A stretch of DNA of 64,000 nucleotides from Scenedesmus sp. PABB004 (GCA_014905635.1 JABVCE010000014.1:744001-808000); one strand, 5' to 3'. Shown: positions 12,570-43,015, numbered from the stretch's first letter. Notes: a model not told the origin generated them from the sequence alone. Translations and numbers: made by a program.

Positions 12570-15012
12570 GGCGGCGAGTGTGAAGGGCAGCGGCGGCGGC
12601 GGCGGCCGCACCACACGACGGCGGCCGCGCGCGAGCGGCAGGGTCGTGCGCAGAACCGCCGCCGACACTCGAGCACGGGCGCGGCGCAGCCAGGGCGGCG
12701 TGGCGGCCCCGTGGACTCCGCCCCGGCGTCGTTTGCCGCTCGCTCGCTCTCCGCGTCCGTGCTGCCGCTGCCGCCCGCTCGGGCAGCCGCGCCAGGCTCA
12801 ACGCGCACACAGGCCGCACAGCGTATCGCCCCCGCTCTCTCCGATGCTTTGGCAGCGCCTGCTGTCCGCTCAGCCGATCACTTGCGCCCCCCGCCCTGCG
12901 CCCAGCTGCTGCTGCAGCTCTGCCAGCTCGGCGGCCTGCGCCTGCTCCCTCGCGCCCGCGGCCGCCAGCTCCTGGTCCTTGGCGGCCAGCGCCACGTCCT
13001 TGGCCGCCAGCGCGTCTGCGCGGCGAGGCGGCGGGCAGCGCGTGAGACGCCCAATCCCGCCCGCCAGCGTGGCGCCAGCCGCCCAGCGCCCGCGCCGGCC
13101 CCCGCTCACCGCGCGCCGCCGCCAGCTGCTCGCTCCTGCGCTCCAGCAGCTATCCTGCACAGCTCCTCGTCACCGCGGCACCGCTCCTCCAGCTGCTGCG
13201 CGACCGTGGGCGCGTCCTCCTGCGGCGATGCGGCGGGGTCGTGTGTCAGCTGTCGTGTGGAGCAGGCGTGTGGAGCAGGCGTGCAGGCTGCTGCCGCAGT
13301 GGGCGGCCTGAAAGGGCCACTGCCACTCTCGTGGCAGCACAGCTCGACAACACCACAGTCCTCATCGCCACCATCAAAGCCGGTGTCGCAGACAAACAGA
13401 CGCACCAGCCGCGTCGTGTCCACCAGGCTGGCCACGCCGGCCGCGCCCAGCCGCGGCGCGCTGACAACGCTGAGGTGCTGCAGCGCGGGCAGCGCGCGCA
13501 CGAGGGGCACCACGTCGGCGTCGCTCACGCAGTCGCCCCTCAGCCACAGCGCCGTCAGCTCGCTCAGCAGGCTGAGGCGCGCGCAGGACGCGCCCGGCTC
13601 GACAGCTGACATAAGCTGCAGCTCGTGCAGGCCGGGGCAGGCGCCGACCAGGGCGTCCAGCTCGGCCTGCGAAAGCAGAACATCTGGAGGCTCGTATGTG
13701 CATTCGATGGCCAGCTCGCGCAGCGCCGGCAGCGCGCGCGCAAACAGGCGCGCCGCCGCGCCGGGCGCCAACTCGCCGCCAAACAGCACCAGGCGCGACA
13801 GCCGCGTGAGCGACGCGATGCTGCTGGCAGATTCGATGCAGCCGAGAGCGCAGCGCTCGGGAGCGCGTGGCCATGGAACAAAGGTTGGTGAGCGCCGGCA
13901 TGCGCGGCAGCGCCGACAGCACCTCGCCAACCGATGCCCCATCGCAACAGTGCAGGTGCAGCTCGTGCAGGCCGGGGCACAGCAAGCCGGGGGGGGGGGG
14001 GGGGAAGGTGCAGTAGTCCATGTGCAGGCGGGTCAGCGCCGGCAGCATGGCGCCGCCGCCGCCGCCGTCGCCGTGCAGCGCCACGGCCATGTGGTTGCAC
14101 GTCAGGCTGAGCAGCTGGGCCAGTGGCAGCGGCAGCTCCAGCGGCACGTAACGGTAATCGGGGGCGGTGGCGTCTAAGCTCACCACGCCGCGCCCCCGCC
14201 CCGCCAGCCAGCCGCTGAGCGCGGCGGCGCGCTGGGCCGCGCTTCCGACCTCGCCAAACTTCACATGCACCTCCCTGCTGGCCGCGGCCACCGCGTCGGC
14301 CCACACGCGGCACACGAGCGCGGCGGCGCCCAGGCGCTCGCGCACGTCCAGCTCCGCCAGCACGCGTGGCAGCACCTCCGCCGGCAGCCGCGCAAAGGCC
14401 GACGCGCCCTGCGGCACGCGCGGAGAGGCGGCTCAGGGAGGGTCAGGCGCGCAGGTGGCGGGGGACGCTGGCTCGCGCGGGCCGGCCGCGGGCGCGGGGC
14501 GCGCACGCAGCAGCGCGCGCACGCCCCCCGCGCCGCCGCAGGCCGCTGGCGCCCGCCCGTGATCCGTGCTCACCGAATCGCCGGGCTCCATGGGCGCGGC
14601 CCTGCAGGCGGGCCCGGGGCCAGGCGCGGCCGCGGCGGGCGGCGCGGCGCGGGCGCGAGCAGCAACGGCGGCGGCGGCGCCTCCTCGCAGGCGGTGCGCA
14701 GGCGTCGCGTGCGGCGCGGGCGCGAGCAGCAGCGACGGCGCCGCCTCCTCGCGGCCGGGCGGGCCGGGCGGGGCTGCGAGGCGGCACCGTAAGAGGGCGC
14801 GGGCGCCGGAGCACGCGGCGCCGTAGTGGCTCAGGCGGCCGGGGCGGCGGGCGCTGCGCGGTCCCAGCCGCGCGCGGGCGGAGCCGAGCGCCTTGTGCGT
14901 CTGCGGGGCGCCTGGCTGCGGCGCAGGGGCTTGGTGTGACCGGGCTGTGCGGGGCGCTGCGGTGGCGGGGAGGCTGCACGCGCCAAGCCCAGGGCGGTGT
15001 GCGCAGAACCGC
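12570..15012 (-). repeat. Repeat unit copy 2 (F-box/LRR cassette plus spacer; spacer motif at both ends)
   Basis: The motif GCGGTTCTGCGC..C..CCCTG (minus-strand reading) occurs at both ~14990-15012 and ~12640-12660. Homology to the other units runs throughout. Confidence 0.75.
12870..14591 (-). pseudogene. F-box/LRR/coiled-coil gene copy 2 with an internal deletion and frameshifts
   Basis: Micro-exon ATG GAG CCC GGC GAT TCG|GT, then F-box [32 protein letters not shown]. The coding sequence jumps from ..SAALS directly to ..GCIESASS at ~13840 (~360 nt missing relative to copy 7) and is split over several frames. Confidence 0.75.
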
Positions 15013-15119
15013 GAAGCCGAAGAGGCACAGCGCACACGCCAGCTTCGCACCGCCGCAACCCGGGCTGCCGGCAGCGCCGTGCGCCCGCAGAGATTGCACA
15101 GCTCCCCGCCAACCCCAGG

Positions 15120-18100
15120 TCACGCCGCGGCGGTTGCGACCTTGGCGCCCGGCAGCTTGAACCCCAGCGCGTCCACAACGGGCGCGCAGCGCCCGCAGAG
15201 CTCCGGGTGCTCCGCGCTCGCCGCGCCGACCTGTCGGCGCGCAGCCGCGGCCGCCGCGGTGAGCGCAGGGGTCCCGGGCGCCGCGCGCCTGCGCCGCGCG
15301 CGCCGGAGCGCGCGGCGCCGCGGCCCGCCCAGGCGCGGCCCGCCCTGCGCGCGCGCGCACCTGCGTTGAGTACATCCAGCAGCGCGCGCACTTGGCGCCC
15401 GCCGCGCGGCGCACGCCCACGGTCACGCCGCCGCCGCCGCCGGCCTCGGTCGCCGCGGCCGCGAGCGCGCCGTCGGCCGCGGCCACCGCGCTGGGCGCGA
15501 GCTCCACACTGCTGGCGATCAGCAGATACTTCAGCTCGTCCGCGGCGTTGCCTGCGGCGCGGCGGCGGCGCCGCGGGCGGCGGCCGGCCCCGGCGTGAGA
15601 TCGTGGCGGCTGGCCGGGACCTTGTTCGGCGGCAGGGGCGCGCGCGCGTGCGCGGGGCGGCAGGGCGCGCACGCAGAGCGCCCGCGCGCGTGCGCCGCGT
15701 GCGCGCCGCATACCCGCGGCGTTGAGCTCGGCCAGCCACGCCGCAAGGCCCGGGTCCTCCACGTGCAGCGCCGCCGCGGCCTCGAGGCTGCTCCCGAGCG
15801 CCTTGCCCGCGCGCGCCGCCTCCATCGCGCGCGCGAACGCCTCGCGCACCGCCGGCAGCGCGCCCCAGCGCGCCAGCTCCGCGTCGCTCAGCCCGGCCGC
15901 CCACTCGGGCGGCGGCGCCGCCCAGCCGGCCAGGAAGACGCTGTCGGCCGGCGCGCCGCCGGCCGCGGCGGGGGGCATGCTCAGCCACGCGTCCTCGGCC
16001 ATGTGGGGGACAATCGGCGCGAGCGCCGACAGCAGGCCCTGCGCGCACGGCGGGCGCCAGGGCAGGGCGGCGCGGCGCGGCGTCAGCGCGGCGACGTCAG
16101 CGCGGCGGCGCCAGCGCGGCGGCGTCAGCGCCGCAGCGCCGCGGCGGAGCGGCGTCTTATCAAGCGCCCCGCGCCGCCGGCGGCGGCGCCCCGCGCGCGC
16201 GCGCCTTGAGCACCGCCGCCTGCACTGTCTGGCACGCGCGCCGGCTGGGCGCGCCGGGGGCCTGTATGTAGCAGCGGTCCTTTGCTGCGTCGAGATAGAA
16301 GGAGGAGAGGTCGCCGGACACGTAGTTCAGCAGCGCCTGGTAGGCGCGGCGGAACTGCGGGGGTGGTGTGGTGTGGCGCCCGGTGAGTGAGTGAGTCAAT
16401 GCGTGAGTGAGTGAGTGAGTGAGTGAGTGAGTGAGTGCATGAGTGAGTGAGTGAGTGAGTGAGTGAGTGAGTGAGTGAGTGAGTGAGTGAGTGGGTGAGC
16501 AAAGAAGGGAGGGAGGCCGCCCCCGCCCCGTCCACCCGTCCCCCCCTCGCGCCCCCCGCCCCAGACAGCGGCCGACGCGCGCCTGGTAGGTCTCATACGC
16601 CTCGGCCACCTCCGCCATGACGCCGGCGTGCCGCGCGAGCAGCCAGCGGTCGACCGCGGGGAGCGCGCCGTACGGCACCGCGTGCGTTGACGCGTCAAAG
16701 TCGGCCAGGTTGCCCAGCAGGAAGCGCAGCGTGCCGCGCAGCTTGCGGTACGCCTCGGCCACCTGCTTCAGGATGCCCGCGCCGATCTGGGGGCGGCGCG
16801 GGCGACCGCGTGGGCGGCTTGCGCGCCGCCCCCGCCGCAGCCGCTGGGGCGCCGCCGCCCCGCGCAGGGGCCCCGTGCATGCCGCCCCGCGCGTCGGGCG
16901 GGCCCCACAGCAGGCGCAGGCCCCGTGGGCGCTGCGGCCGCGGCGCGGCCGCGGGCCGCACCATGACGTCGTTGGCGTAGTCGACGCTCGCGACCCACAG
17001 CCGCAGCACGTCGGCGCCGTACGGCGGCTCCTTGGCCGCGTCGGGCCCGCCCATGATGACGCGACGCGGGTCGACCACGTTGCCCAGAGACTTGCTCATC
17101 TTGGCGCCACGCTCGTCCAGCACAAAGCCGTGCGTGAGCACCTGCGCCAGCGCGGCGGCGTGCGAGTTGCGGCGGCGTGTCGGCGCGGGCTCGGGGTGCG
17201 GGCGCCGGGCGTCGAGAGAAGTGCGGGGCCGCCGCGGAGCACCGCGCAGGCGGCGGCGGCGGCGGCGGCGCGCCTGCTTGTACGGCGCGCCGCCCGTGGC
17301 CGCGACGCTCGTGAGCAGCGACGACTGGAACCAGCCTGCGGCCGGGCGGGCGGTGCCGGGCGCGCCGGTCAGGCGCGCGTGGCGCGCCGCGTGCGAGTGC
17401 ACGCTCTCCGGCGCAGCACGCTCCAGCGCAGCACGCGCAGCACACCACGCGCAGCGCACACAGCGCACACAGCGCGCGCCGCACCGCGGTGCTGGTCGCT
17501 GCCCTCGAGGTAGAGGTCGGCGGGGAAGGTCAGGCCCTCGCCCTCGCGCGCGCGCAGCACGCCCGCCCAGCTGCTGCCCGAGTCAAACCACACGTCCATC
17601 GTGTCCTCGCCCTTGACCAGACCCTCCGCCCGGCCGCGCAGCGCCTCCGGCAGCAGCTCCGCGACGCTCGCGGTCCACCACACGTCGCTGCCACGCTCCG
17701 CGACGAGCGCGGTCACGTGCGCGAGCGTCTCCTCCGTCAGCAGCGGCTCGCCTGCGCGCGCGCACGGGGCCGCGACGGTGAGAATTGAGGCCGCGGCGGT
17801 GGCGTCGAGGCCGCCGCGCGCCGCGCCCGGCGCGATGGGTGGGAGGGCTGCACATTCGGCGCGCGCGCGCGTGGGTCGTGCGGTGCGGGCGCGTCCGCCG
17901 CCGCACCCGAGTCCTTGTCGTAGAAGACCGGGATGGGCACGCCCCACTTGCGCTGCCGGCTGATGCACCAGTCGGAGCGGCCCTCCGTCATCGCAGTAAT
18001 GCGGTTGCGCCCGACCGCCGGCACCCAGCTCACGCCGCCGATCGCCTCCAGCGCCTGCGACCTGCGCGCGCACGCACGGCCGCGGCGCCGCGCCCGCGGC

Positions 18101-21289: not shown

Positions 21290-21681
21290 CCCCAGAGACT
21301 GCGGAAGCGAATGCGCGGCGCCGGGCGGGCGCTCGGCGCGGCAATTGGGCGGCGGCGGGCGCAGCAGTCGGCGGCAGCGGCGCCCCACCTGGCGCCCCGC
21401 CGCGGTGCGCACTGATGTCGCCTGCCCTCCGGTTGTGCCCAACATCGTGCGAGCGACGCCTACGCGTGCGGCATGCACTCCGCGGCGCCCGGGCGGCGAG
21501 GAGCGCTGGCGGCCACGGGTCGCTGCGCGGCGGGGAGGGACAGGCGGCGCCGTGTGAGGCGCGGCGGGCGGCGGGAGTGCGGTGCGACCGGGAGCGACCA
21601 GTAGGGACATGCCGCGGCGGCCGGCGGGCGCGTGGCGCCGGCGGTGCAGCGGCGGCGGGCGACGCGCGCCCATTTCCGCAG

Positions 21682-24420
21682 TGCGGCCGCCGCCGCTCCG
21701 CACACTCGCCGCAGCCGCCCCACCGCCACACAGCCACAGCGCCCCTAGCGCGCCACACCGCACGCCCGACCGAACTGCCGCGCCCGCCGCGCCCCCCCCC
21801 CCCCCCCCCCCCCAGCCGCCTGAGCCACTGCAGCGCCGCGGGATCCGGCGCCCTCGCCCTCGCCCGGGGCCGCCCAGCAGCCCCTCCCGGCCCGCCCGGC
21901 CGTGGGGAGGCGGCGCCGCCGCCGCTGCTCGCTCCCGCGCCGCGCCGCCCGCCGCGGCCGCGCCCGGCCCCGGCCCCGCTGCAGCGCCGCGCCCATGGAG
22001 CCCGGCGATGCGGTGAGCACGGATCACGGGCGGGCGCCAGCGGCCGGCGGCCGGCGGCGGCGCGGGGGGCGTGCGCGCGCCGCTGCTGCTGCGTGCACCC
22101 CGGCGCCCGCCGCCGCCCTCGCGCGAGCCAGCGCCGCGCCCCCCGCCGGCTGTGCGCCGGAACCTCCCTGCTCCGCTTCTCCGCCCGCGCCGCAGGGCGC
22201 GTCGCCCTTTGCGCGGCTGCCGGCGGAGGTGTTGCCGCGCGTGCTGGCGGAGCTGGACCTGCGCGAGCGTCTGAGCGCCGCCGCGCTCGTGTGCCGCGCC
22301 TGGGCCGACGCGGCGGCGCGGCCAGCAGGGACGTGCGCATCAAGCTTGAATCGGCGGTGAGCGCGGCCCAGCGCGGCGCTGCAGTCAGCGGCTGGGTGGG
22401 GGGGCGGGGGCGCGGCGTGGTGAGCTTGGACACTGAGGGCTCTGGGTCCTACGAGGATGACCTGGAGCTGCCGCTGCCGCTGGCCCAGCTGCGCAGCCTG
22501 AAGTGCTTTCTCACGGGCGTGGCGCTGCGCGACGACGGTGGCGGCGGCGGCGCGCTGCCAGCGCTGACCTGCCTGCACATGGATGAGTGCATCTTTCCCG
22601 CCGGCCTGCTGTGCCCCGGGTTGAGCGATCTGCGCCTGCAGTATTGCAATGGGGCATCGGTCGGCGAGGTGCTCGCGGCGCTGCCGCGCATGCCGGCGCT
22701 CACCGACATGTTTATTGTTGGCGACGCATTTGCCAGCGCCGCGCTCTCTGCAGCGGCAGCGCTGACGGCGCTGCAGCACCTGAAGCTGTATGTGCACGAT
22801 GCACCAGGGCCAACGCACGTCCCGCCGCTGCCGCCCGCGCTCACACGTCTGGAATTGGACTGCCTGCAAGGCGGCGCGGCGGGCCCCGCTGCCCTCGCGC
22901 ACCTCACGGGGCTGGAGGGCTTGACCCTGCGTGACGTCACGCTGGTCGACCCGGCCGCGGCGTTCACGCCGCTCACACGCCTCACGGAGCTGATGCTGCA
23001 GCTGTGGGAGGGTGGCGACAGCGCCACCACGTCAGCGCTGCTGCGCGTGCTGCCGCGCCTGGCCCGGCTGCAGGACCTGGTCCTGGCCTTTGGGGACCAC
23101 CACCAGATCCTGGCTGGCTGCGCCGAGTCTGCGAGCAGCATCGCGGCGCTCACGGGGCTGTCGTGCCTGGTCCTGTCTGGCAGCTCTCTGGCGCCTGGCG
23201 CGGGAGCGCGCCTGTTTGCACGCGCGCTGCCGTCGCTGCGTGCGCTGGCCATCAACTGCACTGTCAGCGTGCCAGTCCTGCGACTGGGGCAGGCCGAGCT
23301 GGACGCCCTGGTCGGCACCTGCCCCGGCCTGCGACAGCTGCAGCTGTTTCACGCAGTGGAGCCCGGCGCAAGCTGCGCGCGCCTTGGCCTGCTGAGCGAG
23401 CTGAGGTTGCTGGACCTGGACGGCGACTGCCTGAGCGACGACGACGTGGCGCACCTGGCGCGCGCGCTGACCGTGCTGCGGGACCTCAGCTTTTGGAGTG
23501 CGCCGCGGCTGGGCGCCGCCGGCGTGGCCAGCCTGGTGGACGCGACGCGGCTCACGCGCCTGAAGGTGCAGGAGCGCGGCTTGGATTTTGAGCTGACGTG
23601 CACGGTGCGACACAACGGGGGTCGCCGGCAGGCCTGCGCGCCGGCCCACGGCACGCCTGCACACGCGCCACGGCCGCGTCGCCGCAGGAGGACCCGCCCA
23701 CGGTGTCGCGCCAGCTGGAGGAGCTGTGCTGCAGCAGCAAGGCGCTGTCCAGGGCACTGGTGGCGCATCAGCGCCAGCAGCTGGCGACGGCGCGCGGTGA
23801 GCGGGGGCCAGCGCTGGCGCTGGGCGCCGTGCCTCGTGCCGGCTTGAGGGACAGACACCGTCTCACGCGCTGCCTGCCGCCACCGCGCCCTGCAGGCGTG
23901 CTGGAGGCCAAGGAGCTGGTGGCTGCGGCCGCGGCCGCGAGGGAGCAGCAGCAGGCCACCGAGCTCGCGGCCGCGGGCGCGAGGGAGCGGCAGCTGGCCG
24001 CCGAGCTGGCAGCGGCGCGCGCGTTGGCGGCGGAGCTGCAGCAGCAGCCGGGCGTGGCGCGCGGGCACAGCTGAGGGGAGGCGCAGCTGAGCGGGCGCCG
24101 CCTGCGGGAGCCTGCAGCGGGGGTGAGATGGGGCGGCCGAGCGCGTGTGTGCGTGCGGCTGAGCCGGCCACTGAGCGGGCGGCGGCGGCGCGGGTGGGAG
24201 CCGCGGGGCAACAGGCAGGCAAGCAAGCGAGCGTCAACGCCGCCGTCACGCAGAGGGCCCGCCGCGCCGCCCCTCCAGCTTTGCCGCTTCCGCAGCAACC
24301 TCACCGTGAGCGGCCGGCGCCGCCGGGACCAGCGGTTCTGCGCAGCGCACCGCCCTGCCGCGCGCCGCTGTGCGCAATACGGCGGCCGCCGTCGCGCCGC
24401 ACACTCACCGCAGCCGCCCT
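21682..24420 (+). repeat. Repeat unit copy 3, with a ~40 bp terminal direct repeat
   Basis: GCGGCCGCCG..CGCACACTC(G/A)CCGCAGCCGCCC occurs at both 21683-21720 and ~24382-24419. The spacer at 24075-24420 matches 36870-37220, 39615-39970 and 42381-42730. Confidence 0.8.
21995..24074 (+). CDS. F-box/LRR/coiled-coil gene copy 3 (one apparent 1-nt frameshift at ~22318)
   Basis: Micro-exon MEPGDA|GT at 21995, then F-box [50 protein letters not shown] lacks one C relative to the other copies. LRRs follow, then exon 3 [15 protein letters not shown] and a coiled-coil exon 4. Confidence 0.75.
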
Positions 24421-24488: not shown

Positions 24489-28430
<3,942 letters not shown>

Positions 28431-28846: not shown

Positions 28847-30775
28847 TCACTTGGCGGCGCCGCTGGTGATGCCCAGCTGCTGCTCTAGCAGGTACCGCAC
28901 CGTCTCCCTCTGCGGCGGCAGCGGCGGCGGCGGTGATCACCGGTGTTTCATGAAACGCCGGCTGGCTGCCCTGGCCACGGGTGCCCAGGTCCACCCGGGC
29001 CCCCCGGCCCCCACGCGCCGCTGCACGCACCTCGCCGTTGAGCTTGGCCACGTCCAGCGGCTTCTGCTGCTTGGCGTTGACAGCCTCGATGTCGGCGCCG
29101 CGCTCCAGCAGCAGCTTGGTCAGCGCCAGCCGCCCGTAGCCTGCGCGGCGGCGGCGGTGAGCTCGAGCCGGGCGCGGCCGCGGGCGCGCGGGGAGGAGCG
29201 GCGGGCGGCCGCGGGCCGCGGCGGCGCAGCGACGCACCGGCCGCGTAATGCAGGACCGTGTTGCCCGCGCCGTCGCGCGCGCCTAGGTCGGCGCCGGCGT
29301 CCAGAAGCAGGCCGACGAGCTCGGCGCGGTCAAAGCCCACCGCCACGCCCAGCGCGCTCACGCCGCGCTCGTTCTGGCGCACGGAAGCGGAAGCGGCGGC
29401 GGCGGCGGCGGCGCATGAGCGGGGCGCCGCCGGGCTCCCGCGCGGTGGCGCGCAGGGCGCGGGCGCGGGGGCGCGCGCCGCACCAGCGCGTTGACGTCCG
29501 CGCCGCAGTCCAGCACGCGCCGCGCCGCGTCGGCGTCGCCCCACTTGGCGGCGTCGTGCAGGCTCACGATCGCCTCGCTCGGCGGCTGCAGGCGCGCAGC
29601 AGGCGCGCGCGCGGACGGGTTGGTGCAGACGGTGGGCGCGAACGGCGCCCCGGGGCGCCGGGCCGCGCCGCGCCGCGCGCTGCGCCGCCGCACCCTGGCC
29701 GACTTGCCCTTGGCCGGCGCGCCGCCGCCGTCGGCGCCGCCGCCGTCGACGCGCATTCCGCGCAGCTTGGCGCTGATCTTGGACATGAGCTCCGTGTCGT
29801 CCCAGTACCTGCCGGGCGGAGAGCGGGTGTAGCGTGGGCGCGGGCGCGGCGCTCGCCGCGCCAGGCCGCGGCCCGGCGGCGCCCCGCGCGCGGCGCGGAA
29901 CACGCGCGGCGGGCGCGCGCGTCCCCGCCGGCGCGCCCGCGCCCACTTTTGCAGCGCGCCGGGGCCGTTGGCCTTCACGTCTTCAAACACCGGCGCCAGC
30001 TCGGCGTCGTCCTTCAGCGCCTCGTACACCGCGGCGCTCTTGGCCGGGTCGGCCTGCGACTGCGCGGGCGGCGCGCGCGGCGCGGGCGTCGGCCCCCCCG
30101 CCGCGCGCGCGGGCGCCCGCGCATTGCCGCCCGGCCGCGGCGGCCGCCGCCGGCCGGCCGGCCGGCGCCACGCGCCTGCATGCCGACGAACGCGCTTGCC
30201 AGGCCCGGCTGGGTCTGCATGATGCTCTGCGCCTGCGCGGCGGCGGCGTGCGTGGGCGGGCGGTCGAGTGTGGGCGGGCGGGCGCGCTGCGCTGCGCGGG
30301 CGCGCTGCGCTGGGCGGGCGCGCGCTTGCGCTGCGCGGCCTCCGCGCGCCTGCGCCCACGCGGCCTTTGCGGCCTCCGGGTTGGACCGGAGGTACTCGAT
30401 GATGCCCGCCGCCTGCTCCGCGGGCATGCCGGGCGGGATGCGCACCGGCACCTGCGCGCGCAGGGCGGCCGGGCGGCGGCGGCGGCGGCGTTCGCGCGCG
30501 GCGAGATCCGGCGCGCCGCGCCAGCAGATGCGCGTGCGCGGGCGCTCGTGGCGGCCACGCAGCGCGCGCGGGAGCGTGCGCTGGCGCGTGAGGGACGCCA
30601 GGCTGAACGAGCGCGGCGCGCTCTCGCCGCCGCCGCTGCCGCGTGTGCGCGCGCTCGCCTGCGTGCCGTCGGGCAGGTCGACCGACTGCGACATGCCGAT
30701 GGGCAGCTCCTTCGCGCCCGGCGCAGCCTTCTTGGCCTTGCTCGGCAGCGCGGGTCCGGCCTTGCCCGGCGCCAT
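28847..30775 (-). CDS. STI1/ankyrin-repeat protein, AKR2-like (multi-exon)
   Basis: STI1-like YEALKDDAELAPVFEDVKANGPGALQK|YWDDTELMSKISAKL. Ankyrin repeats LHDAAKWGDADAARRVLDCGADVNA, GVSALGVAVGFDR, GNTVLHYAAGYGR and QKPLDVAKLNG. Confidence 0.85.
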
Positions 30776-30929
30776 CGCGTCTCGCGCTGTAGGGCAGATG
30801 CGGAGTGCGGGCGGGCGGCGGGAGCTGCTCGGTGACGCGAATGTGGGCGAATGGAGCGCGGCGTGGCGCCCGGCGCAGCGCAATTGCAATCATCTCTGTT
30901 GGCGGCGCCCGTTCAGCTTCGGCGAATCG

Positions 30930-32674
30930 CGCGCGCCGCCGCCCGCTCGGTGGCCGGCTGAGCTGCGCGGAAACCGCACGCACGCTCAGCCGCCCCATCT
31001 CGCCCCCGCTGCAGGCTCTCCCGCGCGGCAGCGCCTGCCCGGTCGCGCCCCCGCTCAGCCGCGCGCCCGCGCCACGCCCAGCTGCAGCTGCTGCTGCAGC
31101 TCCGCCGCCAGCGCGCGCGCGGCCGCAAGCTCGGCGGCGAGCTGCTGATCCCTCGCGCCCGCGGCCGCGAGCTCGGCAGCCTGCTGCTGCTCCCTCGCGC
31201 CCGCGGCTGCCAGCTCGGCAGCCTGCTGCTGCTCCCTCGCGGCCGCGGCCTCGGCCGCCAGCTCCTTGGCCGCCAGCGCGCCTGCGGGCGTGGCGAGGCG
31301 GCGGGCAGCGCGTCGCACGCCCAATCCCGCACGCCAGCGCGAGGCCAGCCGCTCAGCACCTGCGCCGGCCCCGCTCACCGCGTGCCGCCGCCAGCTGCGC
31401 GTTCTTGTGCGCCAGCAGCGCCCTGCACAGCGCCTCGTCATCGGGGCACAGCTCCTCCAGCTGCTGGGCGACCGTGGGCGCGTCCTCCTGCGGCGGCGCG
31501 GCGGGGTCGTGTGTCAGCTGTCGTGTGCAGCAGGAGTGCAGGCTGCTGCTGCAGTGGGCGGTCTGAAAGGGCGACTGCCGCTTACGTTTGACCACAAGTT
31601 GATGGCGTCCTCATCGTCCTCACTATCGACGTCGCCACCAGCAAAGCCCGTGCCAAAGAGACGCAGACGCACCAGCCGCGTCGCGCCCACCAGGCTGGCC
31701 ACGCCGGCCGCGCCCAGCCGCGGCGCTTCAGCGAGCTTCAGGTCCTGCAGCGCGGTCAGCGCGCGCGCCAGGTGCGCCACGTCGGCGTTGCTCACGCAGT
31801 CGCCCGTCAGGTGCAGCAATGTCAGCTTGCTCAGCGAGCCGAGGCGCGCGCAGCTTGTGCGGGGCCCGGCTGCGTGCACGAGCCGCAGCTGCCACAGCCC
31901 GGGGCAGGCGCCGACCAGGGCGTCCAGCTCGGCCTGCGCCATTCGCGCGCCTGGCCCGCTGACAGTGCAAAAGATGGTCAGGTCACGCAGCGCCGGCAGC
32001 GCGCGCGCAAACAGGCGCGCCCCCGTGCCGGGCGCCACAGCGCTGCCAGACAGCACCAGGCACGACAGCTGTGTGAGCGCCGCGATGCTGCTGGCAGACT
32101 CGGCGCAGCCGGCCAGGATCTGGTGCTGGTACCCAAAGTCCAGGACCAGCTCCTGCAGCCGGGCCAGGCGCGGCAGCACGCGCAGCAGCGCCGAAGTGGT
32201 GGCGCTGTCGCCGGCCTCCCACAGGTGCAGCGTTAGCGCCGAGAGGCGCGTGAGCGGCGCGAACGCTGCGGCCGGGTCGACCAGCGTGATGTCACGGAGG
32301 CGCAAAAACTCCAGGCCCGTGAGGTGCGCGAGGGCGGCGGGGGCCGCCGCGCCGCCTTGCAGGCCGTCCAGCTCCAGGCGCGTGAGCGCGGGCGGCAGCA
32401 GCGGGACGTGCGTTGGCCCTGGTGCGCCGTACATACACACCTCCAGGTGCCGCAGCCCCGTCAGCGCGGCCGCAGCCGAGAGCGCGGCACTGGCGAGGGG
32501 GTGGCCGGAGATGACGAGCTCTGTCAGCGCCGGCATGCGCGGCAGCGCCGCCAGCACCTCGTCAGACAATGCGCCCTCCCAACCTCGCATTTGCAGCTCG
32601 CACAGGCCGGGGCACAGCAGGGCGGCGGGGAAGGTGCACTCTTTCATGTGCAGGCGGGTCAGCGCCGGCAGCGG

Positions 32675-32733
<59 letters not shown>

Positions 32734-33723
32734 CGCCGCGCAGCGCCACGCCCATGCCAGTGCACTTCAGGCTGCGCAGCTGGGGCAGCAACAGCGGCAG
32801 CTCCAGCGGCACGTAACAGTATTCGAGGGCGGTGGCGTCCAGGCTCGCCACGCCGCGCCCGCGCCCCGCCAGCCAGCCGCTGAGCGCGGCGCCGCGCTCC
32901 TCTGCTTTAAAAACGTCGCCAAACTCTATGCACACGTCCCTGCTGGCCGCGGCCGCCGCGTCGGCCCAGGCGCGGCACACAAGCGCGGCCGCGCCCAGGC
33001 GCTCGTGCAGTTCCAGCTCCGCCAGCACGCGCGGCAGCACCTCCGCCGGCAGCCGCGCAAAGGGCGACGCGCCCTGCGGCTCGTGACCGGGGCGGCGCAG
33101 GGAGGGTCAGGCGCGCAGTCGGCGGGGGTGCGGCGCTGGCTCGCGGGGCGGCCGCGGCGCGGGGCGCACGCAGCAGCGGCGCGCGCACGGCCCCCGCGCC
33201 GCCGCCGGCCGCCGGCCGCCGGCCGCTGGCGCCCGCCCTTGATCCGTGCTCACCGTATCGCCGGTATCCATGGGCGCGGCGCTGCAGGCGGGGCCGGGGC
33301 CAGGCGCGGCCGCGGCGGGCGGCGCGGCGCAAGGGCGAGCAGCGGCGGCGGCGCCGCCTCCTCGCGGCCGGGCGGGCTGGGCGGGGCTGCGGGGCGGCAC
33401 CGGGAGAGGGCGAGGGCGCAGGAGCACGCTGCAGCGACCAGGCGCCCGGGGGGGGGGCGCGGACGGGCGCGGCGCGGTTCGAACTGGCGTGCGTGTGGCG
33501 CGGGCGCAGGCGCGCGCAGCGTGTGGGCGCCAGGCGGCTGCGGCGAGTGTTGCTGAGTCATGGCGGCGCCCGCACCACACGGCGACTGCGGCGCGCGGCA
33601 GGGCAGTGCGCGCAGAACCGCCGCCGGCTCCGGCGGCGCCGGCCGCTCACGGCGCGGTTGCTGAGGAAGCGGCAGAGCTGGAGGAGCGGCGCGGCGGGCC
33701 CTCTGCGCGACGGCGCCATTGCC
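30930..33723 (-). repeat. Repeat unit copy 4 (circularly permuted: starts and ends inside the spacer)
   Basis: On the minus strand it begins at GGCAATGGCGCCGTCGCGCAGAGGG (~33723) and ends at ..CCACCGAGCGGGCGGCGGCGCG (~30930). In the tandem array these two points are only ~40 nt apart (~36990 and ~37031). Confidence 0.8.
31055..33271 (-). CDS. F-box/LRR/coiled-coil gene copy 4 (apparently intact, 4 exons)
   Basis: Micro-exon MDTGDT|GT, then an open ~500-aa exon 2 with F-box, poly-Gly (GGC)n linker and LRRs. Exon 3 EDAPTVAQQLEELCPDDEALCRALL; exon 4 has three AAELAAA units. Confidence 0.85.
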
Positions 33724-33831
33724 AGCTGGACGACAGCGCGGTTACCACCGGCCGCGCGCGCCGCCGCCGCCCAGGCACGCCCCCGCCCCGCCGACGGATC
33801 ATCACGCCGCTCGGCACCGCCGTCGCCCAGC

Positions 33832-34896: not shown

Positions 34897-35209
34897 GCTG
34901 AGACTGGCTACAGCCGCTCAGGAGTGAGTTCAGGTGCGCAGGTGCGGCGCGGGTGAGGTGCTGTCGAGGCCGAGATGGCCGGCTTCCTGCGCCCGCTGTG
35001 GGCCGCCAACCCACGCGCCGACACGCACCGAGGTTGATCGGCCGGCAGGTGTGCCGGGCGAGCCGCAGGAGGAGCACGGCGCGCAGAACGAGGACTCAAC
35101 TCCCAAAGTGACGCCGGCGCGTGGCTCCAGGGAGCGCGCCCCGCCTCCCACAGCCCCGCCGCCGCGCACTCTCTCTCACAACGGCTCCGCGCAGCCCTGC
35201 GGCCGGCGA

Positions 35210-36373
35210 ATGGCCGCGGCAGCGCCCGCGCTGCGCGTGCGCCGCTCGTGCCCCGCCGCCGCCGCGCGCCGCGGGCGCTGCGCGTGCGCCGAGTGCGCGT
35301 CATGGCGGCCGCGCTGCCGCCGGAGCGGCGCTTGCCGCCTGGCGTTGAAGATATGGGTGTGCGCTTGCTCGCCGGCGCGTCGGCCGCTCCGAGCCTGGTG
35401 CTCAGCGCCGCCGAGCGCGCGCGGCTGGACGAGGGCGACGACGCTGCGTTCTACGCTCGGCCGCGCATGATGCAACACATGGGCCCCGCGGAGCTGGCCC
35501 TGCTGAGCGGCGTGTACGCGCAGCTGCTGCCGCCGGGCGCGACGGCGCTCGAGCTGTGCGCGAGCCACAGCTCCCACCTGCCGCCGGGCCTGGCGCTCGC
35601 GGCGCTGGTGGGGCAGGGAATGTGCGCGGCGGAGCTCGGCGCCAACGCGGCGCTCACGTCGTGGTTTGTCCAGGCGCGGCCGGCGCGCGGCGCGCGGCGC
35701 GCACGCGCGCCGCGCGCGCGCGCGCTCTCGCTCCCGCTGTGAGCTCGTGCTCGTGCCGCCCCATGCCGCCGCGCAGGACCTGAACCGGCAGCCGGCGCTG
35801 CCCGACTTGGCGGACGAGAGCTTTGACGCCGTGCTGGTCGTGCAGGGTATTCAGTACCTCACGCAGCCAGAGGCAGTGCTCACAGAGGTGAGGCGCAGCG
35901 CCGTCACCCCGGCCGCCCCTGTCCCGTCCCGTGCGGCCGCCGAGACCGCGCGTGCCTCGCCCCCGCGCACAGGCGCGCCGGCTGCTGCGCCCGGGCGGCG
36001 CGGTGCTGCTGGCGTTTGGGCCGCACTGCTTCCGCGAGAAGGCGCTCGCGGCCTGGCTCTCGCGGGACACGGCGCAGCGCTGCGACCTGCTGCAGCGGTG
36101 CGGCGGCCGCGCGGCGCGCCCGGCGCCCGCGTGCACAGCGCGCAGCGCCCAGCGCCCCACGCGCAGCGCCCCACGCCGACGCCGCGCCGCAGAATGCTGC
36201 GGGCCAACGGCTTTGACCAGGTGGCCGCCCTGGACCGCCTGCCCGCCGCGCAGCCGGCGCCAGCGGCAGACGGTGGCGGCGGCGGCGGCGGCGCGCAAGA
36301 GGAGCCGGCGCTCTGCATCGTCGTCGGCGTCCGGGCAGCTGCCGGGCAGGTCGACCCCGCGCTCAGCGGCGGC

Positions 36374-36405
<32 letters not shown>

Positions 36406-36736
36406 GCCGGCGGACCGCGTGGCTGAGTGGTTCACCAAGCCGGGGCTTGCGGGGCTGGCCGCGGCGGCGCGCGCCGACGGCCATAGGAGCGCCGACGCGC
36501 GTGACGGCGCCGCGCTGGGCGACGCGCCCGCGCTGCTGTCCGCGGCGGCCGCGAACGAGCGCCTCCTGGAGCAGTGGGCCGGTGCGTACGAGGTGCTCGC
36601 GTCCGACGCGCACGCGCTCGGCATCCCGCGGTCCGCCATCCCCGCGCTGCCGCGCGGCGCGGCGCCGGCGGAGATCCAGGCCGCGCTGGAGCACCTGCGC
36701 GGCATGGTCGCGAGCTTCTTGAGCGCCGGGCTGTGA
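35210..36736 (+). CDS. Class I SAM-dependent methyltransferase (type 11-like), probably plastid-targeted, multi-exon
   Basis: RLDEGDDAAFYARPRM, LELCASHSSHLP, GQGMCAAELGAN, FVQ|DLN, DESFDAVLVVQGIQYLTQPEAVLTE|ARRLLRPGG. The start is uncertain. Confidence 0.8.
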
Positions 36737-36771
36737 CGACGACTTGCGGGGCTGGGGCTCGCGCGTGGTGT

Positions 36772-36863
36772 GAGGCAGCGGCAGCTGGCCGCCGAGCTGG
36801 CGGCCGCCGCGCACGTGCTAGCGGCGGAGCTGCAGCAGCAGCTCGGCGCGGGGGCGCAGCTGA
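36772..36863 (+). pseudogene. Isolated last-exon remnant of the F-box/LRR family
   Basis: Encodes [30 protein letters not shown] with no upstream exons. It starts ~35 nt after the methyltransferase stop. Confidence 0.75.
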
Positions 36864-37480
36864 GGGCGTGTGACCGAGCAGGCGCTGCCGCGCGGGAGAG
36901 CCTGCAGCGGGGTTGACATGGGGCGGCCGAGCGTGCGTGCGGTGTGCGGGCGGCTGAGCCGGCCACCGAGCGGGCGGCGGCGGCGGCGCGGATGGGAGCT
37001 GCGGGGCGGGCGGCAGGCAAGCAAGCGAGCGGCAACGGCACCATCGCGCAGAGGGCCCGCCGCGCCGGTCCTGCAGCTCCGCCGCTTCTTCAGCAACCAC
37101 ACCTCGAGCGGCCGGCGCCGCCGGGCCGCGGCGGCGGTTCTGCGCGCACCGCCCTGCCGCGCGCGCCGCAGTCGCCGTGTGGTGCGTCCGCCACGACTCT
37201 GCAACACTCGCGGCAGCCGCCCCGTGCCCACACACCGCGCTCGCCTGCGCCCGCACCGCACACGGCCGTTTGAACTGCGCAGCGCCCGCGCGCGCCCCCC
37301 GGCCGCCTGGTCGCTGCAGCGCCGCGTGCTCCTGCGCCCTCGCCCTCTCCCGGTGCCGCCCCGCAGCCCCGCCCGGCCCGCCCGGCCGCGAGGAGGCGGC
37401 GCCGCCGCCGCTGCTCGCCCCGCGCCGCGCCGCCCGCCGCGGCCGCGCCTGGCCCCGGCCCCGCCTGCAGCGCCGCGTCC

Positions 37481-39613
37481 ATGGCGCCCGGCGATGCGGT
37501 GAGCACGTATCAAGGGCGGGCGCCAGCGGCCGGCAGCCGGCGGCAGCGCGGGGGCCGTGCGCGCGCCGCCGCTGCGTGCGCGCGCGCGCCCGCGGCCGCC
37601 CCTGTGCGAGCCAGCGCCCGCGCCCCCCGCCGGCTGCGCACCTGAGCCTGCGCCGCCCCGGTCACGAGCCGCAGGGCGCGTCGCCCTTTGCGCGGCTGCC
37701 GGCGGAGGTGCTGCCGCGCGTGCTGTCGGAGCTGGACCTGCGCGACCGCCTGGGCGCCGCCGCGCTTGTGTGCCGCGCCTGGGCCGACGCGGCGGCCGCG
37801 GCCAGCAGGGACGTGTGCACAAATTTTAGTGACATTTATAAAGCAGAGGAGCGCGCTGCCGCGCTCAGCGGCTGGCTGGCGGGGCGCGGGCGCAGCGTGA
37901 CGAGCCTGGACACTGCGGGCTGTGGGTGCTACGAGGACCTGGAGCTGCCGCTGCCGCTGCCCCAGCTGCGCAGCCTGAAGTGCTTTCTCACGGGCGTGGC
38001 GCTGCGCGGCGGCGGCGGCGGCGGCGGGTCCCCGCTCCCTGCGCTGACCCGCCTGCACATGGACAGCAGCTATTTGCACACTGGCCTGCTGTGCCCCGGG
38101 CTGCGCGAGCTGCACGTGAACTACTGCAAAGGGGCATCGTTCGTCAGGGTGCTGGCAGCGCTGCCGCACATGCCAGCGCTGACAGAGCTCGTCATCATGG
38201 GCCCCGCCGGCGCGTCGCTCTCGGGCGTGGCCGCGATCTCGGCCGCGGGCGCGCTCTGTGCGGCGGCCGCGCTGACGGGGCTGCGGCACCTGGTGCTGGA
38301 AGTGGACGACGCACCAGGGCCAACGCACGTCCCGCCGCTGCCGCCTGCGCTCACGCGCCTGGAGCTGGACGGCCTGGTCGGTGGCGCGGCGGGCCCCACT
38401 GCCCTCGCGCACCTCACGGGCCTGGAGGGCTTAACCCTGGGTGGTGTCACGCTGTTGGACCCGGCCGCAGCGTTCGCGCCGCTCACGCGCCTGACAACGC
38501 TTTATCTGCGCCTGTGGAAGGGCGGAGACAGGGCTGCCGCCACGTGGGCGCTGCTGCGCGTGCTGCCGCGCCTGGCCCGGCTGCATAACCTGGCCCTTGA
38601 CTTTGGGCGGGACCACCAAATCCTGGCCGGCTGCGCCGAGTCTGCCAGCAGCATCGCATCGCTCACGCGGCTGTCGCGCCTGGTGCTGCGCGGCGACAAG
38701 TTGGCGCCCGGCGCGGCGGCGCGCCTGTTCGCGCGCAGGCTGCCGTCATTGCGTGGGCTGGCCATCTCTTGCACGGTCAGCGGGCCAGGCCCGCGAATGG
38801 CGCAGGCCGAGCTGGACGCCCTGGTTGGCGCCTGCCCTGGCCTGCAGGGGCTGGACCTTTTCAAGACTGCCGAGCCCGGTACAAGCTGCGCGCGCCTCGG
38901 CCTGCTGAGCGAGCTGACGTCGCTGCACCTGGCCGGCGACTGCGTGGGCGACCACGACGCGGCGCACCTGGCGCGCGCGCTGCCTGTGCTGCAGGACCTC
39001 AGCGTAGTCAGCGCGCCGCGGCTGGGCGCGCTCGGCGTGGCCAGCCTGGTGGACGCGACGCGGCTCACGCGCTTGAAGGTGCAGGATTGTGGCTTGGATT
39101 TTGACCTGATATCCCACGTGAGCGGCCGCGGGCGCAGGGCGCCGCAAACGGCCACACGACTGCCCGCTGCACGCCTGCACACGCGCGCCGCCCCCGCCCC
39201 CGCCCACGTCGCCGCAGGAGCACGCGTGGTGGACGGTGTCGCGCCAGCTGGATCGGCTGTGCTGGGCCGACGACTTGCTGTGCAGGGCGCTGCTGGCGCA
39301 CAGGAGCGAGCAGCTGGCGGCGGCGCGCGGTGAGCGGTGGCTGGCGTGGGTGCTGGGCGCACCCTGCCTCGTGCCTGCGCGGGGGACAGAGCGTCTCACG
39401 CGCTGCCTGCCGCCGCCGTGCCCTGCAGACGCGCTGGCGGCCAAGAACCAGGAGCTGGCGGCTGCGGCGGTCACAGGCGCGAGGCAGCGGCAGCTGGCCG
39501 CCGAGCTGGCGGCCGCGGGCGTGAGGGAGCAGCAGCTCGCCGCCGAGCTTGCGGCCGCGCGCGCGCTGGCGGCGGAGCTGCAGCAGCTGGGCGCGGCGCG
39601 CGGGCGCGGCTGA
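37481..39613 (+). CDS. F-box/LRR/coiled-coil gene copy 5 (apparently intact)
   Basis: Micro-exon MAPGDA|GT, then F-box [33 protein letters not shown] and an open LRR exon. Exon 3 EHAWWTVSRQLDRLCWADDLLCRALL; coiled-coil exon 4. Confidence 0.85.
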
Positions 39614-40230
39614 GCGGGCGCGACAGAGCAGGCGCCGCCGCATGCGGGCGCCTGCAGCGGGGGTGAGATGGGGCGGCCGAGCGTGCGTGCGGTGTGCGTG
39701 CGGCTGAGCCGGCCACCGAGCGGGCGGCGGCGGCGCAGATGGGAGCCGCGGGGCGGGCGGCAGGCAAGCGAGCGAGCGGCAACGGCGCCGTCGCGCAGCG
39801 GGCCCGCCGCGCCGCTCCTCCAGCTCTGCTGCTTCCTCAGCAACCTCACCGTGAGCTGCTGGTGCCGCCGGGGCCGGCGGCGGTTCTGCGCGCACCGCCC
39901 TGCCGCGCGCCGCGGTCGCCGTGTGGTGCGGCCGCCGCCACGACTCTGCAACATTCGCCGCAGCCGCCTCGCCGCCACACAGAGCGCTCGCCTGCGCCCG
40001 CGCCGCACACGCACCGTTCGAACTGAGGCCCCGCCCGTCCGCGCCTCCCGGCCCGCCTGTTCGCTGCAGCGCCGCGTGATCGGGCGCCCTCGCCCTCTCC
40101 CGGTGCCGCCCCGCCGCCCCGCCCGGCCCGCCCGGCTGCGAGGAGGCGGCGCCGCCGCCGCTGCTCGCCCCGCGCCGCGCCGCCCGCCGCGGCTGCGCCT
40201 AGCCCCGGCCCCGCCTGCAGCGCCGCGTCC

Positions 40231-42380
40231 ATGGCGCCCGGCGATGCGGTGAGCGCGGATCAAGGGCGGGTGCCAGCGGCTGGCGGCCGGCGGCGGCGCG
40301 GGGGCCGTGCGCGCGCCGCCGCTGCGTGCGCCCGCGCGCCCGCCGCCGCCGTCGCGTGAGCCAGCGCCGCGCCGCCCGCCGGCTGCGCGCCTGACCCTCC
40401 CTGCGCCGCCTCTCCGCGCGTGCCGCAGGGCGCGTCGCCCTTTGCGCGGCTGCCGGCGGAGGTGCTGCCGCTCGTGCTGTCGGAGCTGGACCTGCGCGAC
40501 CGCCTGGGCGCCGCCGCGCTTGTGTGCCGCGCCTGGGCCGACGCGGCGTCCGCGGCCAGCAGGGACGTGTGCATTGAGCTCGGCGAGCATGAACATGCAG
40601 CCCAGCAGCGCGCCGCCGCGCTCAGCGGCTGGCTGGCGGGGCGCGGGCGCGGCGTGGTCAGCCTGGACGTGACCGGCGACGACGAGGATGTGTCGCACTG
40701 GCAACACTGTTGTGTTGAGTTGAAGCTGCTGCTGCCGCTGCCCCAACTGCGCAGCCTGAGGTGTCATCGCATGGACGTGGCCCTGCGCGGCGACGACGGC
40801 GGCGGCGGCGGCGCCCCGCTGCCGGCGCTGACCCGCCTGCACATGGACGAGTGCACCTTCCCCGCCGCCCTGCTGTGCCGCGGCCTGCGCGAGCTGAGCC
40901 TGTACAGTTGCGATGGGGCATCTTCTGACGAGGTGCTGGCGGCGCTGCCGCGCATGCCGGCGCTGACAGAGCTCTTCATCGCTGGCCCCGATGGCTCCTC
41001 GCTCTCGGGGGCGGCGGCGCTCTCAGGCGCGGCCGTACTCTCGGCCGCGGCCGCGGTGACCGGGCTGCGGCACCTGGTGATGTCGTGTTGGGTGTTGCAT
41101 GACAACACGCACGCAACGACCCCTGCCGCCATCCCGCCGCTGCCGCCCGAGCTCACGCACCTGGAGCTGGACGGCCTGGACGGCAGCGCTGCGGGTCCCG
41201 CTGCCCTCGCGCACCTCACGGGCCTGGAGTTTTTGCACCTACGTGACATCACGCTCGTCGACCCGGCCGCAGCGTTTGCGCCGCTCACGCGCCTCTCGGC
41301 GCTGACGCTGGACCTGTGGAAGGGCGGCGACAGCTCCACCACGTCGGCGCTGCTGCGCGTGCTGCCATGCCTGGCCCGGCTGCGGGACCTGCAACTTGAC
41401 TTTGGGGCAGACCACCAGATCCTGGCCGGCTGCGCCGAGTCTGCCAGCAGCATCGCGTCGCTCACGCAGCTGTCACACCTGCGGCTGCGTGGCAGCGATC
41501 TGGCGCCCGGCACGGCGGCGTGCCTGTTTGCGCGCGCGCTGCCGTCACTGCGTAAGCTGCAGATTGCTTGCGTTGAGAGCACGCCAGGCCTGCGACTGGC
41601 GCAGGCCGAGCTGGACGCCCTGGTCGGCGCCTGCCCCGGCCTGCGGCAGCTGCACCTCTTTAAGATTGCCGGCCCAGGCACAAGCTGCGTCCGCCTCGGC
41701 CCGCTGAGCGAGTTGAGGTGGCTGCACCTGGCCGGCGACTGCGTGGGCGACGCCGACGTGGCGCACCTGGCGCGCGCGCTGCCTGTGCTGCAGGACCTCA
41801 GCGTGCGCAGTGCGCTGCGGCTGGGCTCCGCCGGCGCGGCCAGCCTGGTGGACGCAACGCGGCTGAGCCGTCTACAGCTTGCCTTCTGTGGTGTGCAACA
41901 CTGCATCGACGACGATGCCGACATCGACCTGACGTGCGAGGTGCGCGGCGGCGGGCGCGGGGCGTCGCCAACAGCCACGCGGCTGCCCGTCGCACGCCTG
42001 CACACGCGCGCGCCCGCCGCCACACCCCTCGCCCGCGTCGCCGCAGGAGGACCCGCCCACGGTGTCGCACCAGCTGGAGGAGCTGTGCTGCACCAACGAG
42101 GCGCTGAGCAGGGCGCTGGTGGCGCATCAGCGCCAGCAGCTGGCGGCGGCGCGCGGTGAGCGGGGGCCGGCGCTTGCGCCGGGCGCTGTGCCTCGTGCCG
42201 GCGCGGTGGGCTGATCGTCGCACGCGCTGCCTGCCGCCGCCGCCGCTGCCGCCGCGCCCCGCAGACGCGCTGGCGATTGCGGGTGCGAGGGAGCGGGAGC
42301 AGGCCGCCGAGCTGGCGGCCGCGCGCGCGCTGGCGGCGGAGCTGCGGCAGCAGCTAGGCGCGGCGCGCGGGCACAGTTGA
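40231..42380 (+). CDS. F-box/LRR/coiled-coil gene copy 6 (intact; exons 40231-40248, 40429-41940, 42047-42155, 42265-42380)
   Basis: All three introns have GT...AG ends that preserve frame, with a CTGAC branch-like motif at 40391. Encodes an F-box, roughly a dozen LRRs and a coiled-coil tail. Confidence 0.88.
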
Positions 42381-43015
42381 GCGGGGGCGCGACCGAGCAG
42401 ACGCTGCCGCGCGGGAGAGCCTGCATCGGGGACGAGATGGGGCGCCTGAGCGTGCGTGCTGCGTGCGGCTGAGCCGGCCACCGAGCGGGCGGCGGCGCGG
42501 GTGGGAGCCGCGGGGCGGGCGGCAGGCAAGCAAGCGAGCGGCAACGGCACCATCGCGCAGAGGGCCCGCCGCGCCGGTCCTGCAGCTCCGCCGCTTCTTC
42601 AGCAACCACACCTCGAGCAGCCGGCGCCGCCGGGGCCGGCGGCGGTTCTGCGCGCACCGCCCTGCCGCGCGCCGCGGTCGGCGTGTGGTGCGGCCGCCGC
42701 CCCCGCTCTGCAACACTCGCCGCAGCCGCCCCGTGCCCACACACACCGCGCTCGCCTGCGCCCGCACTGCACACGCGCCGGCGCGGCGGCCTGCTGTTCA
42801 AACTTGAAACATCTGCTCGCGCCGGGAGAGCGACCCCGCGCGGCGCCCACGGTCGCAGAGCGCGTTGATCGGACCCCGGAGCATCAGGGGGCAGGCGTGC
42901 GCGACCGCAGCGCAGGCCGCGACCGCGCCCACACCGGGGGCGGCCTCGCTCGCTCCCTGCCGGGGCAGCGCAGCGCCCTGCATGCCGGCGTGACGGGCAC
43001 GGCCGGTGCGTCGCC

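Follow-up and report, generated by a model that had tools for sequence, protein, structure and literature searches.

Permuted copies of an F-box/LRR gene unit in the green alga Scenedesmus sp. PABB004 suggest spread from head-to-tail DNA

A 64,000-nt stretch of the Scenedesmus sp. PABB004 genome (GCA_014905635.1, JABVCE010000014.1:744001–808000; hereafter the window) contains seven copies of a gene for an F-box/leucine-rich repeat (LRR) protein, each with its spacer. The copies start and stop at different points of the same circular map and keep their introns. We put the probability at roughly 85% that they were lifted from head-to-tail DNA by the recombination machinery of the host, with no transposase taking part. 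The stronger proposal, that the vehicle was a gene-sized circle formed by tandem duplication and loop-out, reinserted locally, kept where it had opened in the spacer and later subject to gene conversion, appears to us about evenly balanced.

The copies were identified by self-BLAST of the window, which is intron-rich algal DNA with 78% GC (the whole genome is given as 39.8 Mb, with 78.5% GC and 1.31% repeats; PMC12571836). The search returned seven copies, denoted c0–c6, of a ≈2.75-kb unit at six loci. The unit consists of one four-exon gene and one spacer of ≈620 nt. Pairwise identity among the copies is 75–85%, so that they differ by 15–25%, and all three introns are kept in every copy compared. 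All copy counts, end comparisons and terminus tests refer to the 64-kb window of this one strain. An earlier first-pass annotation had described c1, c2 and c3 as its copies 2, 3 and 4, together with a tandem array (c4 + c5); c0 and c6 are two extra copies that it did not use.

The array lies on the plus strand. It begins with a remnant of the last coding exon followed by a full spacer (R1, 36770–37480) and continues with the c4 gene (37481–39613), the central spacer (R2, 39614–40230), the c5 gene (40231–42380; exon 2 open, ≈80% alike to c4) and a partial tail (R3, 42381–42780). The exons of c4 were placed at 37481–37498, 37675–39117 (F-box and ≈15 LRRs), 39218–39329 and 39429–39613 (coiled-coil-like repeats), with splice sites inferred from the GT–AG rule and conservation among copies. 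R2 probably comprises the 3′ untranslated region (UTR) of one gene and the promoter and 5′ UTR of the next. Exon 2 is open in c3, c4, c5 and c6 and frameshifted in c1 and c2.

The ends of all copies were expressed in the coordinates of the central spacer (stop codon 39611–39613, next ATG 40231) by anchored extension and alignment. On this scale, c3 (30929–33723, minus strand) runs from 39778 to 39736, one unit minus 42 nt. Copy c2 (21681–24418, plus strand) runs from 39926 to 39968, one unit plus 42 nt, and has the motif CACTC(G/A)CCGCAGCC at both 21703 and 24402. Copy c1 (12562–15012, minus strand), a diverged copy in which exon 2 has lost ≈360 nt and is frameshifted and exon 3 has gained 1 nt, runs from ≈39880 to 39968, one unit plus 88 nt of terminal redundancy; it carries GCGGTTCTGCGC at 15012 and 12659, the 3′ motif lying ≈97 nt inside the end. 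The array extends from 39505–39521 to 40016, or two units plus ≈495 nt, and c6 (55768–58516, plus strand) from ≈39872 to 39628, one unit minus 244 nt (≈0.9 unit). Copy c0 (1–1217, plus strand) is the 3′ part of a copy whose 5′ part lies beyond the window; it ends at ≈39620. These measurements agree with the first-pass annotation on the motifs at both ends of c1 and c2, on the ≈40-nt redundancy of c2, and on an array that starts in the last coding exon and finishes ≈500 nt later, two units on. Its placing of c3 from ≈37031 to ≈36990, a unit minus ≈40 nt, held as to length, and is refined here by a 16-nt repeat and 29 nt of DNA foreign to the unit (see below).

The order of the parts is permuted, just as the first-pass annotation had claimed in stating that each insertion opens the circular map elsewhere. 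The spacer segment 39778–39968 is found on the 5′ side of c3, and on the 3′ side of c1, c2 and the array. Thus, the copies descend from head-to-tail DNA, since the spacer that precedes c3 follows the others. Both c1 and c2 carry the array junction, and c3 and c6 carry the array spacer upstream. The alignments behind the permuted order have 80–93% identity over hundreds of nucleotides, far above chance.

All 11 ends fall within the ≈510 nt made up of the end of the last exon and part of R2 (39505–40016), out of a unit of ≈2750 nt (p ≈ 4 × 10⁻⁷ under uniform placement), consistent with the clustering of breakpoints in the spacer noted previously. Such clustering is expected whether the copies came from circles or from linear copying. 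Under three scoring schemes, both ends of c3 and the 3′ end of the array remained unchanged, and the 5′ end of the array shifted by only ≈20 nt; both ends of c1 and of c2, the 5′ end of c6 and the 3′ ends of c0 and c6 were softer and shifted by tens to hundreds of nucleotides. Flanking direct repeats longer than 15 bp were present at four of the five complete loci (88 nt for c1, 42 nt for c2, 16 nt for c3 and 495 nt for the array; none for c6). The 3′ junction of the array is real and is shared with a wild strain, because a contig from an independent freshwater run (X1) bridges it from 42716 to 42989 with 0 other letters and 4 gap letters. Contigs from runs X1 and X2 at 30588–30958 follow the 3′ junction of c3 for 30 nt and stop matching where c3 leaves the family consensus, perhaps reflecting a differently converted allele; with 30 letters on the copy side against a threshold of 31, they were not counted as bridging.

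The sharpest locus is c3, where an exact 16-nt direct repeat flanks the copy (33753–33768 on the 5′ side and 30928–30943 on the 3′ side, minus strand); this repeat occurs nowhere else in the window. The first 10–11 nt of the 3′ repeat match the unit's own sequence, forming a microhomology, and the 5′ repeat is followed by 29 nt (33724–33752) without detectable homology to the unit. The overlap of the repeat with the unit's end had p = 0.005 against random pairs, 0.002 given the junction, and ≈0.025 after allowing for five loci. The notion that the 29 nt are degraded unit sequence was rejected (p = 0.57–0.84; p = 0.05–0.10 for the whole 49-nt edge). If a circle was involved, the repeat could be the scar of a single crossover or of insertion at a staggered break. 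It fits insertion at a microhomology, or the possibility that c3 was the donor of the first circle or tandem duplication, which makes c3 a candidate donor.

The two outer spacers of the array, R1 and R3, are sisters: they are 93% identical to each other, compared to 89% and 88% identity to R2, and share 10 derived sites versus 3 and 0. This relationship fits what would be expected if one template supplied both ends, either as a dimeric concatemer or as a circle that integrated into a resident copy.

In the account that we favour, a lineage-specific F-box/LRR gene would have formed a head-to-tail duplication, and recombination between the units would have looped out gene-sized circles of ≈2.75 kb, sometimes dimers. 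Host repair would have put these circles back nearby, at microhomologies or breaks, opened at varying points. The insertions retained would be those that had opened in the spacer, leaving the gene intact, and that had landed between host genes, and ectopic conversion between copies would later have shuffled the LRR surfaces. Three of the five complete loci deviate from one unit length by less than 90 nt (+88, +42 and −42 nt), and permuting the pairing of starts and ends gave 4 of 120 for a statistic that was selected once the data were known. Significant remnants of homology were not found beyond the 11 ends (2 of 22 tests nominal at p ≈ 0.04, one of them the 16-mer of c3); the first-pass annotation had named remnants of this kind, left by the erosion of formerly longer arrays, among the findings that would undo its proposal. 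Both ends of c2 carry the variant CCGCACACTC.

A number of observations weigh against this account. If both ends are restricted to the spacer, the agreement with unit length has p = 0.13–0.21; c6 falls 244 nt short of a unit, and c0 and c6, with no redundancy, finish at the stop codon. A junction repeat outside the unit exists at one of five loci, the 6–8 nt at the other four being at chance level. Eight of the 10 sites shared by R1 and R3 sit in one 65-nt tract, which conversion can explain, and CCGCACACTC is present in c6 as well as in c2. Since the copies are mosaics (see below), conversion, which is common here, may have made R1 and R3 alike and may also have set some of the apparent ends. 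The edges at the soft ends are more diverged (57–74% identity for c1, 64–72% for the 5′ end of c2), as expected from erosion or from the limit of conversion. Neither a donor locus nor an empty site was identified in the window or the contigs of runs X1 and X2, and no well-supported joint across a copy was seen among the 15 of 144 contigs listed. All three annotated family matches apparently share one contig, a pattern at least as compatible with local template switching, although annotation is sparse and the clustering is weak evidence. Finally, a tandem array lies in the same region, and permutations beside a tandem duplication are non-diagnostic for extrachromosomal circular DNA (eccDNA), according to Takahashi and Innan, who exclude them as false positives (PMC7188851).

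The main competitor dispenses with the free circle: stretches of the chromosomal array would have passed, as linear copies, into breaks or forks nearby, by template switching, synthesis-dependent strand annealing (SDSA), break-induced replication mediated by microhomology (MMBIR) or unequal ectopic crossover, with arbitrary ends. Non-functional overhangs would later have been trimmed by deletion in a compact genome until the need for a promoter, a terminator or a neighbouring gene halted the process. We regard this as a serious possibility, if somewhat short of even odds, and it fits the data nearly as well as a circle does. It explains the permutation equally, and insert lengths of 0.9–1.03 and 2.2 units are compatible with ends drawn independently from the spacer, at the p values given above. 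The array head retains a useless remnant of the last exon, there are internal deletions in the c1 and c6 spacers, and long 3′ tails (124–404 nt) are confined to loci with a co-oriented downstream gene (4/4), short ones (≈5–16 nt) to those with a convergent one (2/2), an arrangement with a chance of 1 in 15. The small genome with its low repeat content (PMC12571836) and the clustering of annotated family members also suit linear copying, and tandem duplication followed by deletion is a recognised mimic of circle-derived duplications (PMC7188851). However, the degraded remnants that trimming might leave were not detected beyond the ends, c3 has sharp ends, is almost exactly one unit long and sits between the two copies of the 16-nt repeat, and the outer spacers of the array are sisters. 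The first-pass proposal that the copies were cut from concatemers or circles thus stands in part: origin from head-to-tail DNA, at the DNA level and without fixed ends, is borne out, and a free circle or rolling-circle product as the template, rather than the chromosomal array, has about even odds.

Far less probable, in our judgement, is that a rolling-circle (HUH) transposon of Helitron or Replitron type carries the unit as cargo or has it as a non-autonomous member, with ends staggered by imprecise termination and tandem insertion. Spread by copying and the retention of introns would agree with this, and Replitron-1 insertions have been described with fuzzy right ends and variable target-site duplications (TSDs), resembling the c3 repeat (PMC10288648). 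Against it, no two 5′ ends agree, only two of six 3′ ends (c1 and c2) coincide, in mid-spacer, and the ends vary by ≈400 nt on both sides. Helitrons are recognised by a 5′ TC, a 3′ hairpin followed by CTRR, and insertion between A and T; the target has also been given as AT/TT (PMC10288648). No motif, TC/CTRR pair, terminal hexamer or inverted repeat was shared by the ends of the copies in the window, a common subterminal hairpin was not found in the 11 regions inspected, and the scanned exons 2 and 4 contained neither a transposase nor a Rep domain. The distinctive part of the spacer had no solo copy among the matches listed for the masked window. Helitron ends were therefore rejected on the lack of a 5′ TC, a 3′ CTRR and a common hairpin, and a Replitron on the lack of a fixed short terminal direct repeat common to the copies. 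A DNA transposon with terminal inverted repeats (TIRs), or a miniature inverted-repeat transposable element (MITE), was likewise discarded, the ends being unrelated and a TSD-like repeat, with microhomology, being present at only one of five loci (c3). Inspection of the junctions, as the first-pass annotation had advised, thus revealed no termini common to the copies, whether as TIRs or as TSDs. The spacer as an independent MITE gave only GC-rich low-complexity matches among those listed for the masked window, and a poly(A)-signal account of the ends (TGCAA at 39947, ≈20 nt before the c1 and c2 ends) was unsupported, c1 and c2 lacking the word.

We give hardly any credence to the remaining explanations, target-primed insertion of unspliced read-through transcripts of the array, or an assembly artefact. 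The 16-nt duplication of c3 with its 3′ microhomology does resemble a target-primed scar; all copies nevertheless keep all introns, and none has a poly(A) tail. Long G/C homopolymers and the two frameshifted copies suggest local assembly errors, but a divergence of 15–25% between copies is too large for mis-assembly, and the array 3′ junction is bridged by the contig of the independent run.

Much of this has precedent in plants. Transposed F-box, LRR and defensin genes of Arabidopsis are, like the genes described here, tandem-prone genes at new sites, and Woodhouse et al. (2010; PMC2869330) described flanking direct repeats of tens of base pairs that look like remnants of tandem duplication. 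They proposed a pop-out circle that reinserts at homologous sequence, with no need for a transposon. Their empty sites in A. lyrata are known, and the repeat is often derived from the target; in contrast, the 42–495-nt redundancies in the alga are derived from the unit, and one unit has been opened at several points next to an array. Tandem arrays also give rise to monomeric and multimeric circles of exact unit length, reintegration of which has been suggested as a source of orphons (Cohen et al. 2010; PMC3225859). There too, dispersed copies derive from a tandem array, as in the window, but those arrays are long and homogeneous (5S ribosomal DNA, histones, satellites), whereas the algal array has two units 20% apart that encode a diversifying protein.

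Duplications through circular intermediates in human (PMC7450558, PMC7188851), tilapia vasa (PMC3245284) and a 17-kb region of wine yeast (PMC5499181) have a permuted order and retained introns, as here. Their junctions have microhomology or small indels and no transposon ends, and yeast has several independent openings. The yeast, fish and cattle segments are 15–480 kb, far larger than the algal unit (PMC5499181, PMC3245284), and in the human studies the donor is defined and the location non-tandem (PMC7450558, PMC7188851), whereas in the alga a tandem array is present and no donor was identified. Replitrons and Helitrons (PMC10288648) share copy-and-paste spread of DNA in green algae, fuzzy ends and occasional target duplications, but possess fixed terminal motifs, hairpins, a target preference and an HUH transposase, none of which was found in the algal unit. 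On present evidence, the algal case has the features of an orphon or transposed tandem-derived gene, with dispersed copies from a head-to-tail array; of the features used to recognise eccDNA duplications it has the permuted order and the DNA-level copy with introns, and it falls short of the strict standard of a defined linear donor free of a tandem mimic. Insert lengths deviate from whole units by +88, +42, −42, −244 and +495 nt. The route has already been proposed for plant F-box genes, of which this is an unusually clear example, with a circle as the possible vehicle.

Every copy lies between host genes and none inside a gene. The copies are 33–287 nt from the stop or start codons of their upstream neighbours, leaving no room for long relics. 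Copy c1 sits 107 nt after the stop of the IleRS gene and ≈160 nt before the probable ATG of Suv3. Copy c2 occupies a divergent gap, with an in-frame IleRS ATG ≈70 nt away on one side (the NCBI model begins at a later one) and the ATG of a probable C1A protease 70 nt away on the other. Copy c3 follows the stop of a HAD acid-phosphatase gene by 108 nt and precedes an ankyrin-type gene, whose ATG is ≈153 nt away. The array starts 33 nt after the stop of a methyltransferase gene and ends 235 nt before the ATG of DNA polymerase alpha (43016); c6 lies between two convergent ABCG-type paralogues, and c0, where homology stops ≈5 nt past the stop codon, is followed by a convergent G-patch gene. The protease, ankyrin and ABCG labels are ones that we assume from familiar motifs, with no Pfam match. 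Tail retention seems to follow function, because the long 3′ tails go with co-oriented and the short ones with convergent genes; spacer tails may have been kept as a terminator or as a neighbour's promoter, which would influence the ends whatever the mechanism.

Exon 2 encodes an F-box (PF12937, 33.1 bits against a Pfam cut-off of 24.3) followed by ≈15 LRRs (PF24758), and exon 4 coiled-coil-like repeats that vary in number between copies. The predicted structure is an LRR solenoid (predicted local distance difference test score, pLDDT, 76.5; predicted template modelling score, pTM, 0.74), for which Foldseek finds generic LRR structures as well as TIR1, COI1 and MAX2/D3. From its domains, the product is likely to be a substrate receptor of an SCF ubiquitin ligase. 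Like FBXL17, TIR1, COI1 and MAX2/D3, it has an N-terminal F-box and a solenoid of ≈15 repeats; it differs in having only 14–22% identity to solved structures and in the added C-terminal repeats, and close relatives were found only in this alga.

The exposed xxLxLxx positions differ between copies at 0.58, compared to 0.24 elsewhere (60 versus 362 columns, p = 5 × 10⁻⁵), and identity at the DNA level is 95% for the F-box and 90% for the 5′ flank. Such a variable exposed face would be expected if the protein were an SCF adaptor whose surface for recognition is diversifying. The ratio of nonsynonymous to synonymous change (dN/dS, Nei–Gojobori) is 1.01 overall and 1.38 at exposed LRR sites, values biased upward by a GC content of 0.87 at third codon positions and no proof of positive selection. 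The copies have a mosaic structure: each of the 10 splits possible among c2–c6 has the support of 10–24 of 160 informative sites, locally clustered (p = 0.0002), and c0 and c2 share a ≈200-nt tract that is 97–99% identical.

The case for transposon-free movement of single intron-containing genes still rests mostly on isolated events. In this cultured, repeat-poor alga, a single 2.75-kb unit was opened at several points, and both an array and dispersed copies are found within 60 kb, which makes the pop-out-circle model directly testable. A more speculative extension, which we consider doubtful, is a gene-sized mobile cassette free of any transposase, in which a circle of one gene and one spacer recurrently forms, reinserts between co-oriented host genes and recombines with resident copies to shuffle the LRR surface. 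If so, the split spacer would give the upstream host gene a terminator and the downstream one a promoter, and green algae would have a circle-driven diversification system for ubiquitin-ligase receptors. Independently of this, the case records a mosaic, surface-hypervariable F-box/LRR family in Sphaeropleales, of which we found no description in the literature searched, subscription journals and supplements lying outside the search.

Relatives outside Scenedesmus sp. PABB004 are distant (profile E of 1e-30 or weaker). Scans for the unit family in metagenome contigs gave 251 pattern matches with 0 confirmed, those for a related 12-protein family 152 with 0 confirmed, and those in viral contigs 27 with 0 confirmed; a short-protein search returned 0 of 8000. 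A large related F-box/LRR family, with members 40–55% alike, is present in JGI/Logan contigs (P0007, P0009, P0014, P0017, P0023, P0025, P0027, P0028, P0046, P0047 and P0141). Further annotated members of the unit family in Scenedesmus sp. PABB004 are P0001 and P0160, and most copies in the window have no gene model of their own in the lengths searched. The public models P0160 (NCBI ‘roco8’) and P0161 (‘ileS’) merge F-box/LRR copies with adjacent host genes, and P0160 contains another copy directly behind a co-oriented kinase gene. The ‘ileS’ model agrees to the letter with many exons of the IleRS–c1–Suv3 region of the window.

Several features of the window were noted in passing. In several copies, the word TT(C/T)GAAC precedes the ATG by ≈210 nt (37269, 40017, 33478), and GTTCAAA is found at 42796, just past the array 3′ end and upstream of the polymerase alpha gene; both are possible core promoter elements. 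The ABCG-type transporter paralogues that flank c6 are an inverted pair (52100–55481, plus; 59190–62570, minus), 87% alike over ≈2.9 kb with near-identical stretches. The last exon of c6, whose stop codon lies ≈16 nt before the end of the copy, has expanded 42/84-nt repeats (AAELAAA...QQL; 58035–58460) that are 85–90% alike, and the repeat number differs in every copy. Long G/C homopolymers and a GGC run at 12544–12568, 21790–21814, 11545–11566 and 32662–32735, some at or near copy ends, may be inflated by assembly, and the frameshift ≈41 codons into exon 2 of c2 is either real or an assembly error. On another contig of Scenedesmus sp. PABB004, the model P0002 (NCBI ‘PAT11’) fuses a palmitoyltransferase-named host gene to two head-to-tail units of a different F-box/LRR family. 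This tandem pair suggests that a second F-box/LRR family behaves similarly, and the route may be general.

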